NCBI RefSeq assembly: GCF_024502345.1
Contig: NZ_JALDNN010000001.1
Length of the DNA: 64,000 nucleotides
Reading direction: 5' to 3' (one strand)
Origin: Escherichia coli
GTDB lineage: Bacteria; Pseudomonadota; Gammaproteobacteria; Enterobacterales; Enterobacteriaceae
In this document: positions 365-1,641 of the stretch, piece after piece
Layout: each line of letters starts with the position of its first letter
Position numbering within the stretch: position 1 is the first letter of the stretch
Made by a program: the position numbers and the translations under genes
Notes under the pieces: generated by a model
Seen by the model: only the letters and a program-made list of their open reading frames with translations
What the model was told of the DNA's origin: nothing
The model's database searches: none

Positions 365-380
365 CATTTATCAGTAATTA

Positions 381-411
381 AAATCACCACCTTAAAATGT
401 GGTGATTTTTT
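381..411 (+). terminator. rho-independent terminator downstream of rihA
   Basis: Perfect stem aaatcaccac / gtggtgattt with 8-nt loop followed by T-run. Confidence 0.6.
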
Positions 412-426
412 CCATATTCATTAATA

Positions 427-816
427 TCAATCAACTGTGACTTTTTTCCCAAAATCCTCTTCTGCAATCCAGGTTAAAAACGATGTATCGGCGCCACCTA
501 ATTTAACAACGCGATCATATAACATCATAACACCAAAATCATGTTCGATATCCCAGGAGCATGAGAACTCGAAACCAATATAAGGCTGGCCATTATTATG
601 CACCGATAAAATATGTATCGCTAATGGTGATAACAACTTTGAAAAATCCTCTTGAGTTCCAACATCTGGCATATACAACTCTTTTTCTTCCTCGTCATAG
701 TCATATTGCCCTTGTAAATCAGGATATTTTTTCATAAGTTCCGAAAGAATGGATGCCAAAATTTCAGATTGATGAACAATAATATACTGTAACCCAGTCT
801 TATGGCATTCGCTCAT
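427..816 (-). CDS. hypothetical small acidic protein (129 aa), second gene of a two-gene AT-rich insert
   Basis: Uninterrupted ORF in track; co-oriented 39 bp downstream of the 173-aa ORF; many D/E residues; no signal peptide or TM segment; not a K-12 gene at this locus. Confidence 0.5.
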   Translation of the reverse strand: MSECHKTGLQYIIVHQSEILASILSELMKKYPDLQGQYDYDEEEKELYMPDVGTQEDFSKLLSPLAIHILSVHNNGQPYIGFEFSCSWDIEHDFGVMMLYDRVVKLGGADTSFLTWIAEEDFGKKVTVD

Positions 817-855
817 ACATGAAGTTGGATCATCGCCACCAAGGCTGTAGTATAA

Positions 856-1377
856 TTATTCAGCCTCATCACCGAAAAAACTCACCCAGGATGATAAGAC
901 TATTGGTTCACAGACTCGGTCATCCTCATACTCTGGTTCCGACAATATTTTAGGTTCATCAAGATGACGGTTAAAAAACTCCATACATGCACGGTTACGG
1001 GTAAAGATATATTCTTTATTTTCATCATAACTACGTTGAAAATAGTTAAGCGCATCATCCTCTGCTCCACACGCATAAAGGCACTCACCGCGATAGTAAT
1101 TAACAATATAGTATTCATTTATTTTTCTGTTGACATGGTTATCACCTATAGTTAGCCAACGCTTAACATTTTCAATGTCTTTTAACTTAATATATTCATT
1201 CACCATCCTGCCAATAATGATATTGGCATCATGTATTTTATATTTTTCCTCATCCATGATGCTCCACTGACATTCAATAAATTCAATAATATCCGTTGAT
1301 GTAATATTGCTATTTTTGAGCATCGAGCGGTCCAGAAAACTATAAATCTCTGCTACTTTCTCTAACGCATTTGACAT
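856..1377 (-). CDS. hypothetical acidic protein (173 aa), first gene of a two-gene AT-rich insert
   Basis: ORF in track; AGAGGGA Shine-Dalgarno-like sequence ~7 nt upstream of ATG; AT-rich codon usage; no recognisable catalytic motif. Confidence 0.55.
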   Translation of the reverse strand: MSNALEKVAEIYSFLDRSMLKNSNITSTDIIEFIECQWSIMDEEKYKIHDANIIIGRMVNEYIKLKDIENVKRWLTIGDNHVNRKINEYYIVNYYRGECLYACGAEDDALNYFQRSYDENKEYIFTRNRACMEFFNRHLDEPKILSEPEYEDDRVCEPIVLSSWVSFFGDEAE

Positions 1378-1417
1378 AACATCCCTCTTAAATCAATCTA
1401 AAACTAATGCTAAATAT

Positions 1418-1552
1418 TTAAAATATTGATGATTCGGTAGAATGCATATTAAAAGGAGGAAGAGCGCCTGGCTCTCCCTCACGTGCTGTTAAAAAAGTTG
1501 AACTAAAAATGATAGATAGTAACAACGCTACGCTGACAGCCACTCTTCCCAT
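1418..1552 (-). CDS. candidate small ORF (44 aa) with signal-peptide-like N-terminus
   Basis: Hand translation: MGRVAVSVALLLSIIFSSTFLTAREGEPGALPPFNMHSTESSIF; AGGAA 7 nt upstream of ATG; below the 60-aa track cutoff. Confidence 0.2.
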   Translation of the reverse strand: MGRVAVSVALLLSIIFSSTFLTAREGEPGALPPFNMHSTESSIF

Positions 1553-1641
1553 GTCGACATTCCTGAATGTATTCCCTTTTTCTTCATTCCAACAGAAATG
1601 GTATTCGACATAAATCGCTAACAGCGTGCGAAATCATACTA

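Follow-up and report, generated by a model that had tools for sequence, protein, structure and literature searches.

Does the short AT-rich interval between rihA and ybeL in this Escherichia coli genome encode a working module of two small genes? An earlier reading of the 64,000-nucleotide stretch of DNA analysed here (hereafter the window), made from the sequence alone and referred to below as the original prediction, had described this interval as a replacement island carrying an undescribed gene pair of the immunity, antitoxin or anti-phage type. We addressed the question by comparing the interval with the K-12 locus, with homologous proteins and with the genomic environment of the protein family concerned.

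The ybeL-rihA interval

The interval (365-1641) is 1.28 kb long and has a GC content of 36% (0.358), against 51.5% (0.515) for the whole window, and GC3 is 0.33 for the island versus 0.61 in leuS. The AT-richness that had drawn attention to it is therefore real. When the window was compared with the K-12 locus by blastn, homology ended at 390 on the rihA side and returned at 1626 on the ybeL side. The ybeL-rihA site holds an 8.0-kb cluster in K-12, and no ybeQ to hscC DNA of K-12 was found anywhere in the window, so that the cluster is absent, as had been stated. In E. coli, the interval exists in at least four states, of 8.0 kb, 5.2 kb, 1.3 kb and 44 bp. The features of the window copy and its flanks are as follows.

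1..364, plus strand: 3' end of rihA (pyrimidine ribonucleoside hydrolase), the left core flank, aligned to the annotated rihA of E. coli 88-3493 and K-12
380..409, no strand assigned: inverted repeat with an 11-bp stem, an 8-nt loop and T-runs on both strands (RNA fold)
391..1625, no strand assigned: segment without K-12 counterpart, 36% GC (blastn comparison with K-12; composition)
427..1377, minus strand: one split gene, 316 codons and a stop codon in length, broken at codon 174; very probably a pseudogene
427..816, minus strand: 129-aa ORF, covering only DUF6985 model positions 46-146 (Pfam E 5.4e-23)
817..855, minus strand: the 39-bp "spacer", 12 in-frame sense codons (LYYSLGGDDPTS...), conserved as coding sequence in homologs with the consensus YxxGGDDP
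856..858, minus strand: premature TAA, codon 174 (alignment columns 782-784; translations of L003-L005, L092 and L095)
856..1377, minus strand: N-terminal fragment of 173 aa, with a TPR-like domain and the first ~10 residues of DUF6985
1382..1388, minus strand: Shine-Dalgarno-like AGAGGGA, 5-6 nt upstream of the ATG at 1375-1377 (read from the sequence)
1418..1552, minus strand: 44-aa ORF, spanning the hairpin at 1456..1480; unannotated in related genomes
1456..1480, minus strand: terminator-like hairpin downstream of ybeL, 10 pairs followed by CUUUUAAU (scan; -16.9 kcal/mol, z -3.1)
1642..2124, minus strand: ybeL (DUF1451 zinc-ribbon protein), the right core flank

The inverted repeat at 380..409 is predicted to fold on both strands (plus strand, -13.4 kcal/mol, z -5.2; minus strand, -14.5 kcal/mol, z -4.6), and none of 200 shuffled sequences folded as well. 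It is a probable bidirectional terminator serving both rihA and the gene on the opposite strand. At the other end of the interval, the possible 44-aa ORF of the original prediction runs across the terminator-like hairpin. It gave no family match and no detectable homolog, and is probably not a gene. It also shows no similarity to the 319-aa gene that precedes the ortholog of the split gene in another enterobacterial genus (L009), of which it might have been a remnant.

A single gene interrupted at codon 174

The two larger ORFs have the coordinates, lengths, 39-bp gap and acidity first attributed to them. Their products have a pI of 4.66 and 4.49, and the description of an acidic protein devoid of export features agrees with an acidic cytoplasmic protein. 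The division into two genes, in contrast, did not hold. The spacer of 39 bp is a multiple of three, and both ORFs share a reading frame interrupted only by one TAA. Elsewhere codon 174 encodes Gln (CAA): E. coli FDAARGOS_943, E. fergusonii and intact metagenomic alleles all have it. Twelve homologs from several phyla (305-329 aa, 44-95% identity) all align through the position of the stop, and the Pfam DUF6985 match on the reconstructed protein (residues 165-298) spans it. The 316-aa product would comprise a TPR-like helical region (residues ~1-137) followed by the DUF6985 domain (165-298). A sequencing error was considered as the source of the TAA and rejected, as the same codon is present in seven complete genomes and more than 100 contigs. 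In the window copy, this TAA is the sole lesion.

The stop falls inside the DUF6985 domain, and the uninterrupted reading frame of a functional family member is therefore missing. Positions 427-1377 are thus, with high confidence, one gene split by a CAA-to-TAA nonsense mutation and a pseudogene in this strain. The homology search identified the proposed pair as decayed fragments of a known gene, the very outcome named beforehand as fatal to a two-gene module, and the homologs are single proteins.

Databases treat the pieces differently. In related strains, RefSeq annotates the fragments as separate CDSs, namely a DUF6985 protein and hypothetical proteins. The 173-aa protein has an exact match at NCBI, the "hypothetical protein" WP_256632811.1, and several variants of it each occur on 7-68 contigs. 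The 129-aa protein is matched exactly on 118 contigs, under the name of a DUF6985/DUF2004 domain protein. These separate CDSs, the ATG start of each ORF and the acidity of both products are what a functional cassette of two small genes (a toxin-antitoxin or immunity pair, or an anti-phage or anti-defence module) would have in its favour. Such a cassette is nevertheless hardly credible: the ORFs share one frame around a single TAA that is CAA elsewhere, homologs outside the decayed E. coli alleles are always one protein, the split cuts the Pfam domain in two, and other E. coli copies carry further, different disruptions. The resemblance to anti-phage modules found no echo in the searches either. 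PADLOC gave no family match for the ORFs or the reconstructed protein, PHROGs matched only at E > 0.1, and tblastn of 50,697 phage records returned no match. An NCBIfam search of the ORFs and the reconstructed protein yielded nothing useful.

We also weighed whether the split gene still works, with the 129-aa fragment alone, or both fragments reassembled, keeping protective activity and the nonsense allele being tolerated or favoured. The contig counts given above show the TAA-174 allele to be widespread, no second lesion was seen in the window copy, and the invariant C-W-D-E-H motif of the family and its four-stranded sheet lie entirely within the 129-aa part. That part, however, lacks the first helix and strand of the DUF6985 domain and the invariant Trp164, and no obvious ribosome-binding site could be read upstream of its internal ATG. 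Comparison with an intact allele gave a dN/dS of 0.21. Against a strain with the same TAA, dN/dS was 0.86 (3 synonymous and 11 non-synonymous changes), a value resting on small counts that nevertheless speaks against continued function since the common stop. Decay is also general in E. coli: among complete genomes with the island, 12 of 12 carry stops or frameshifts, in two haplotypes, and the sister haplotypes have accumulated more of both. Retained activity of the split gene is accordingly quite unlikely, and we return to the reading of a pseudogene.

The DUF6985 family and its genomic environment

If the gene is dead, its intact relatives may tell what it encoded. The feature had been presented as undescribed, but its C-terminal half matches Pfam DUF6985 (PF22481), and RefSeq already annotates it so. 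On the reconstructed protein, the match has an E-value of 1.2e-23 and covers model positions 17-146 of 148; relative to other members of the Pfam family, a stop codon interrupts the domain here. A search with a profile of 88 DUF6985 members matched the window only at 430-855. The window sequence retains every family-invariant residue (W164, C273, W275, D276, E278, H279 and G282), and the invariant motif of the family reads C-x-W-D-x-E-H, or CxWDxEHxxG in its longer form. DUF6985 proteins, labelled DUF2004 formerly in some NCBI records, form about 1,700 clusters at 50% identity. They are patchily distributed over Bacteroidota, Campylobacterota, Firmicutes, Spirochaetes, Planctomycetes and Proteobacteria, with low GC, and a search of a plasmid collection gave three megaplasmid matches. 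Most members stand alone and are 160-230 aa long; the present subfamily carries in addition an N-terminal TPR-like domain of ~150 aa. The AF2 model of the C-terminal domain has an alpha+beta fold (pLDDT 94.8). No relative emerged from sequence and profile searches of the PDB, an AFDB50 search returned only proteins named "DUF6985 domain-containing", and we found no paper on DUF6985 or DUF2004.

Analysis of the gene environment was more informative. DUF6985 genes adjoin SMI1_KNR4, DUF1963 and SUFU genes, and they also belong to runs of 8-14 small genes that share one orientation. Of the 226 genes scanned as neighbours in these arrays, 11 matched SMI1_KNR4, and SUKH_5, SUKH_6, Imm19, DUF1963 and more DUF6985 also figured in the top-20 families; most of the 226 had no Pfam match or were housekeeping genes, and these counts carry no background frequency. 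DUF6985 is also fused to SMI1_KNR4 in one protein, and tandem DUF6985 copies occur. One locus (L021) encodes a toxin of 1220 aa that combines Transglut_core, PT-HINT, Colicin-DNase and WHH domains, with the WHH nuclease domain in its last ~130 aa. The first gene after this toxin is a stand-alone DUF6985 gene, which begins where the toxin gene stops. At another (L087), the order is a WHH toxin, a SUKH-like ORF and then DUF6985, the second gene after the toxin. The position directly after a toxin was seen only at L021; about 85 loci were inspected, and most of them lack it. We also asked whether large ORFs in the vicinity of DUF6985 genes might be overlooked toxins, but NCBIfam identified them as transporters, kinases, peptidases and dehydrogenases.

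The family thus does occur in polyimmunity arrays together with known immunity families, while the window copy is solitary. Orphan immunity genes and heterogeneous polyimmunity loci (Zhang et al. 2012, PMC3482391; for SUKH and SuFu, PMC3113570) likewise involve small, acidic, cytoplasmic and patchily distributed proteins. As in polyimmunity systems, relatives of the window gene follow a WHH toxin, join arrays with SUKH, SuFu, Imm19 and DUF1963, and are fused to SMI1_KNR4. The window copy departs from such loci in having no toxin or immunity gene nearby, in lying between core genes and in being inactivated; no toxin gene was found in the window. By analogy with these systems, we lean towards the view that the DUF6985 protein, when intact, would be an orphan immunity protein of polymorphic-toxin systems. 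The "orphan immunity" guess of the original prediction fits the genomic context of the family in this respect. Remaining cytoplasmic, the intact protein would prevent DNA cleavage by binding to the C-terminal nuclease domain of a toxin that enters the cell; the likeliest target would be a WHH-type nuclease of HNH fold delivered by a competitor. The TPR-like domain may be a second binding module.

A possible counterpart among described families is Imm37/SNCF2. Its tabulated description (PMC3482391, PMC3113570) gives an alpha+beta fold, an "ExG" motif, association with Tox-WHH, occasional SUKH fusion and occurrence in polyimmunity loci, and the phyla listed there include epsilon-proteobacteria, Bacteroidetes, Firmicutes and Planctomycetes. 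Set against that tabulated description, DUF6985 shares the alpha+beta fold, the Tox-WHH association, the SMI1_KNR4 fusion, the presence in heterogeneous polyimmunity loci and the spread over the phyla named, whereas the "ExG" motif matches CxWDxEHxxG (EHG / EHxxG) only loosely. The balance tips slightly towards DUF6985 being an unrecognised or Imm37-equivalent family of immunity proteins against WHH nucleases, with the present subfamily having a new two-domain architecture.

The family might instead have no immunity role and be a small enzyme or metal-binding protein that acts otherwise in the cytoplasm, with a tendency to reside in variable islands. Clustered invariant Cys, Asp, Glu and His residues, as in CxWDxEH, would be unusual for a pure binding protein, and the motif could reflect metal binding or catalysis instead; moreover, many loci have no toxin and only housekeeping neighbours. 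However, the table in PMC3482391 gives conserved polar motifs for several accepted immunity families as well, DUF6985 directly follows the toxin at L021, and it recurs beside SUKH, SuFu, Imm19 and DUF1963 as well as in the SMI1_KNR4 fusion. We therefore regard a non-immunity role as unlikely and retain the immunity reading.

History of the locus and significance

In E. fergusonii, the gene order is ybeL, an intact 316-aa gene, then rihA, and the product of the intact allele is WP_253168904.1. The island is 96.2% identical to its E. fergusonii counterpart, compared with 96.6% for leuS, 94.8% for ybeL and 96.2% for rihA. Since the island has thus diverged about as far as the flanking core genes (96% identity), we regard the gene as long established at this site, and a recent horizontal insertion was rejected. 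In the other enterobacterial genus mentioned above (L009), an ortholog with 60% amino acid identity adjoins Sel1-DUF1266-DjlB-DUF1266-DjlC-HscC-rihA and sits where ybeQ does in K-12. An intact gene at the same site in one species and an ortholog beside the hscC cluster in another genus are at odds with a recent replacement island. The K-12 ybeQ-ybeR-djlB-ybeT-ybeU-djlC-hscC cluster occupies the same ybeL-rihA interval, and such a cluster adjoins the L009 ortholog; its genes have no sequence similarity in the window, however, and E. fergusonii keeps the gene without the cluster. These sequence comparisons favour differential loss, at a variable locus that is decaying, as the account of the present arrangement.

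This neighbourhood raises one more possibility, that the TPR-like-DUF6985 protein was a partner of HscC and DjlB/DjlC, acting for example as a TPR adaptor for clients or as a co-chaperone in the manner of the Sel1 proteins YbeQ and YbeT, and became useless after the loss of hscC. The position of the L009 ortholog directly beside the chaperone genes and the decay of all E. coli copies without hscC would agree with this. Against it, the gene is intact in E. fergusonii without the hscC cluster, and no Hsp70 or J-domain neighbour was found in the Pfam-called contexts or in the top-20 lists for the 226 array neighbours. Among the contexts examined, hscC and J-domain genes were adjacent to a DUF6985 ortholog in the L009 contig only. 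We judge such a dependence very unlikely. Slighter still is the chance that the enterobacterial TPR-like-DUF6985 protein is a working HscC partner that would hand toxin-like or foreign proteins to HscC-DjlB/DjlC, with ybeL-rihA as one conflict island whose parts were lost piecemeal in Escherichia. Taken as a whole, a split pseudogene that is an old resident of the locus, and that would have been an orphan immunity gene when intact, is the best explanation and a reasonably probable one.

The feature is a dead and partly annotated gene, not worth pursuing as a new two-gene module, and its RefSeq fragments would be better flagged as one pseudogene. The ybeL-rihA interval illustrates on a small scale how differential loss shapes a variable locus, and it warns that an AT-rich stretch need not mean recent insertion. 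For DUF6985, a family without literature or solved structure, the genomic context provides a first functional lead, that of immunity to WHH nucleases, possibly as Imm37/SNCF2.

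A single gene split by a stop codon between rihA and ybeL

The window begins within rihA, whose stop codon lies at 362-364. The gap between this gene and ybeL measures 1,277 bases, and the following features were found in and next to it.

Features of the ybeL-rihA interval and its border (window positions)
380-409, both strands: hairpin with an 11-bp stem and T-runs on both sides (-13.4 kcal/mol, z -5.2, on the plus strand; -14.5 kcal/mol, z -4.6, on the minus strand)
427-816, minus strand: downstream ORF, 129 aa, pI 4.49
856-1377, minus strand: N-terminal ORF, 173 aa, pI 4.66, separated from the downstream ORF by a 39-bp spacer
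upstream of the ATG at 1375-1377, minus strand: Shine-Dalgarno-like AGAGGGA, read from the sequence
1418-1552, minus strand: 44-aa ORF
1456-1480, minus strand: terminator-like hairpin downstream of ybeL, inside the 44-aa ORF
1642-2124, minus strand: ybeL, with leuS next

The three ORFs and the spacer match the original prediction exactly, which was also right that both larger products are acidic and that the interval is AT-rich (35.8% GC vs 51.5% for the whole window; GC3 of 0.33 in its coding part vs 0.61 in leuS). The absence of the K-12 content of the interval (ybeQ-ybeR-djlB-ybeT-ybeU-djlC-hscC) was confirmed as well, no DNA of this cluster being found anywhere in the window; K-12 homology ends at 390 on the rihA side and restarts at 1626 on the ybeL side. 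The hairpin at 380-409 is a plausible bidirectional terminator serving rihA and the pseudogene described below. The 44-aa ORF, proposed as a possible gene, is present and probably not a gene, because no homolog was found and it is unannotated in related genomes. Of the neighboring genes, leuS called mechanically from the ATG at 2218 encodes 907 aa (2218-4941); RefSeq gives 860 aa in related strains, equivalent to a start at 2359, and the 47 codons upstream of this start are probably not translated.

The two larger ORFs had been proposed as a likely undescribed module. The spacer length is divisible by three, and 427-1377 forms a single frame of 316 sense codons with one internal TAA at codon 174 (856-858). 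This codon is CAA in E. coli FDAARGOS_943 (alignment columns 782-784), in E. fergusonii and in intact 316-aa alleles from sequencing-run assemblies. With Gln restored at this position, residues 165-298 match the Pfam domain DUF6985 (E 1.2e-23), and the match therefore crosses the stop; the 129-aa ORF alone covers only model positions 46-146. A database search returned 12 full-length homologs (305-329 aa, 44-95% identity), all single proteins unbroken across the codon-174 site, in which the spacer-encoded residues (YxxGGDDP) are conserved. Region 427-1377 is thus one gene, a pseudogene in this strain, and, within what sequence evidence can show, it is not a true two-gene module. The fragments are unlikely to retain function; the 129-aa product is missing the domain's first helix and strand as well as Trp164, which is invariant in the family. 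Nor is the content undescribed: the exact 129-aa product is present in NCBI on 118 contigs as a DUF6985 (earlier DUF2004) domain protein, and the exact 173-aa product on 7 contigs as "hypothetical protein".

Decay and history of the locus

The island is present in only 12 of 5,426 complete E. coli genomes, as two haplotypes, both broken. Haplotype A (seven genomes, O169:H41 ETEC strains among them) carries TAA at codons 47 and 174, and haplotype B (five genomes) carries TAA-47, Gln-174, two 1-bp deletions and one TAG. The window allele, whose sole lesion is TAA-174, is the least decayed. Every combination of codon 47 (AAA/TAA) with codon 174 (CAA/TAA) is represented: K47/stop174 in the window, stop/stop in haplotype A, stop/Q in haplotype B and K/Q in intact alleles. 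This implies recombination inside this gene of about 1 kb, or recurrent mutation. The Nei-Gojobori dN/dS of the window was 0.21 against an intact allele (18 synonymous and 17 non-synonymous differences), and 0.86, from a small count (3 synonymous, 11 non-synonymous), against the haplotype-A strain sharing TAA-174. These values fit purifying selection up to the stop and near-neutral drift afterwards, the drift part being drawn from the small count. In FDAARGOS_943, rihA beside the island is broken by an IS5-family insertion (L002 2147-4000), which leaves this strain with two inactivated genes at the site.

E. fergusonii has annotated intact copies, of 316 or 330 aa. In this species the order leuS, ybeL, DUF6985 gene, rihA, without the hscC cluster, was seen in three NCBI genomes and a sequencing-run contig, all four assemblies being independent. 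The 330-aa variant (L092 10001-10993) results from a frameshift close to the 3' end, which carries the ORF across the terminator hairpin (tail ...KKSQSININDYGKNHHILRW). Compared with E. fergusonii, the window is 96.2% identical at the nucleotide level in the island, 96.6% in leuS, 94.8% in ybeL and 96.2% at the rihA end; compared with other E. coli, its flanks show 99.6% identity. Because the island's identity to E. fergusonii matches that of its flanks, which are themselves E. coli-like, it appears from these comparisons to be an old resident kept in few E. coli lineages, having diverged along with the core genome. Recent insertion, or recent import from E. fergusonii, was rejected on the same core-like divergence (96.2% identity) and E. 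coli flanks (99.6% identity).

A metagenomic contig (L009) belongs to another enterobacterial genus, since its rihA and ybeL are 86% and 79% identical to those of the window. Its order is ybeL, a 319-aa unknown, the ortholog of the window gene (315 aa, 60% amino acid identity), Sel1 (minus strand), DUF1266, DjlB, DUF1266, DjlC-like, HscC (minus) and rihA (minus). The DUF6985 gene and the hscC cluster are thus able to coexist. The gene's position at the ybeL-rihA site is conserved. A link of the gene to the HscC chaperone cluster would draw on this one adjacency, but E. fergusonii and the other contexts examined speak against it. The 319-aa ORF (524-1483, plus strand) has a signal-peptide-like N-terminus; it matched nothing in Pfam, PADLOC or PHROG, and no remnant of it occurs in the window. 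The Sel1-repeat protein (2478-3035, minus) matches phrog_8741 (E 4e-42), a phage family of unknown function, and weakly the N-terminus of the PADLOC PtuA model (E 4e-6), the latter probably reflecting repeat similarity only.

Across E. coli, 59 sampled chromosomes and a search for the K-12 cluster revealed at least four length states.

States of the ybeL-rihA interval in E. coli
About 8.0 kb: K-12-like; 3,663 of 5,426 genomes have at least 80% of the cluster
5.2 kb: one DUF1266-DjlC module, e.g. ST131
1.3 kb: DUF6985 form; 12 genomes
44 bp: "empty" junction; 11 of 59 sampled, e.g. CFT073 and 536; also DA33137

The 44-bp junction (CFT073, 536, DA33137) contains a separate GC-rich hairpin (gccggatg...catccggc) with no relation to the junction sequence of the window. 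The simplest reading is that an ancestral locus with more content underwent differential loss, with an order of losses that we infer; the low GC suggests that acquisition, from a low-GC lineage, took place much earlier. About 5 kb from the island and outside the window, the gltI-lnt interval (L017, L092) shows a second presence/absence polymorphism: a gene of about 2 kb, encoding a 625-aa rhomboid-family/beta-propeller protein, is found in many E. coli and in E. fergusonii, and is missing in others.

The DUF6985 family and a putative immunity role

A profile search of 1.84 billion representative proteins (E 1e-3 or better) gave 1,726 DUF6985 clusters, the majority stand-alone proteins of 160-230 aa; longer members carry tandem DUF6985 copies and, in one case, a fusion to SMI1_KNR4. 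The family's invariant residues make up the signature W...CxWDxEHxxG. A model of the C-terminal domain built with 88 homologs (pLDDT 94.8) predicts an alpha+beta fold with a four-stranded antiparallel sheet. No paper naming DUF6985 or DUF2004 was found in a literature search.

In one locus (L021), a stand-alone DUF6985 gene starts at the stop codon of a polymorphic toxin. This toxin, 1,220 aa long, contains Transglut_core, PT-HINT, Colicin-DNase and WHH domains and has a C-terminal TWHH...HQAVRHTGG motif. In a Myxococcales genome (L087), the order is a 999-aa protein with a homologous C-terminal WHH domain (phmmer 1.5e-9), a SUKH-like ORF (LPEAYALFLKRHNGG) and DUF6985. Elsewhere, DUF6985 genes adjoin SMI1_KNR4, DUF1963 and DKNYY genes (L014) or a SUFU gene (L015). 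In 70 species genomes from a pattern scan, they are often part of a run of 8-14 small genes in one orientation; of 226 array neighbors in a Pfam scan, 11 were SMI1_KNR4 (raw count), others were SUKH_6, SUKH_5, Imm19, DUF1963 or further DUF6985 copies, and the remainder were housekeeping genes or had no Pfam match. In a Treponema MAG, a DUF6985 fragment is followed 3 kb downstream by a WHH-like fragment of 63 aa (L088 9051-9239; phmmer 1e-5), and the latter may be an orphan toxin cassette.

These DUF6985 contexts are hallmarks used by Zhang et al. for immunity proteins in "heterogeneous polyimmunity loci" (PMC3482391). The table of that study lists Imm37 as alpha+beta, with ExG and Tox-WHH, occasionally fused to SUKH, and spread widely but patchily, epsilon-proteobacteria, Bacteroidetes, Firmicutes and Planctomycetes being among the groups named; Imm37 is the former SNCF2 (PMC3113570). 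This description, compared by table entry only, is close to DUF6985, and the equivalence of the two families is a lead by description. An immunity role with WHH specificity is a putative assignment from genomic context. A non-immunity role is possible, with DUF6985 placed first after a toxin in only one locus and an invariant Cys/Asp/Glu/His motif in the family. If immunity is the role, the gene seen here would have acted as an orphan, since no WHH-like ORF is present in the window.

In the proposed mechanism, the intact protein would remain cytoplasmic and bind an incoming WHH-type (HNH-fold) toxin from a competitor at its nuclease domain, thereby blocking DNA cleavage; the N-terminal TPR-like domain could offer an additional surface for binding. 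The stop within the DUF6985 domain would abolish this function in the present strain. The island, a real observation, is not an undescribed two-gene module; it is a nonsense-split, already partly annotated DUF6985-family pseudogene, ordinary in nature, at a variable, content-losing locus, and what it usefully yields is a lead on the function of DUF6985, together with a corrected annotation.
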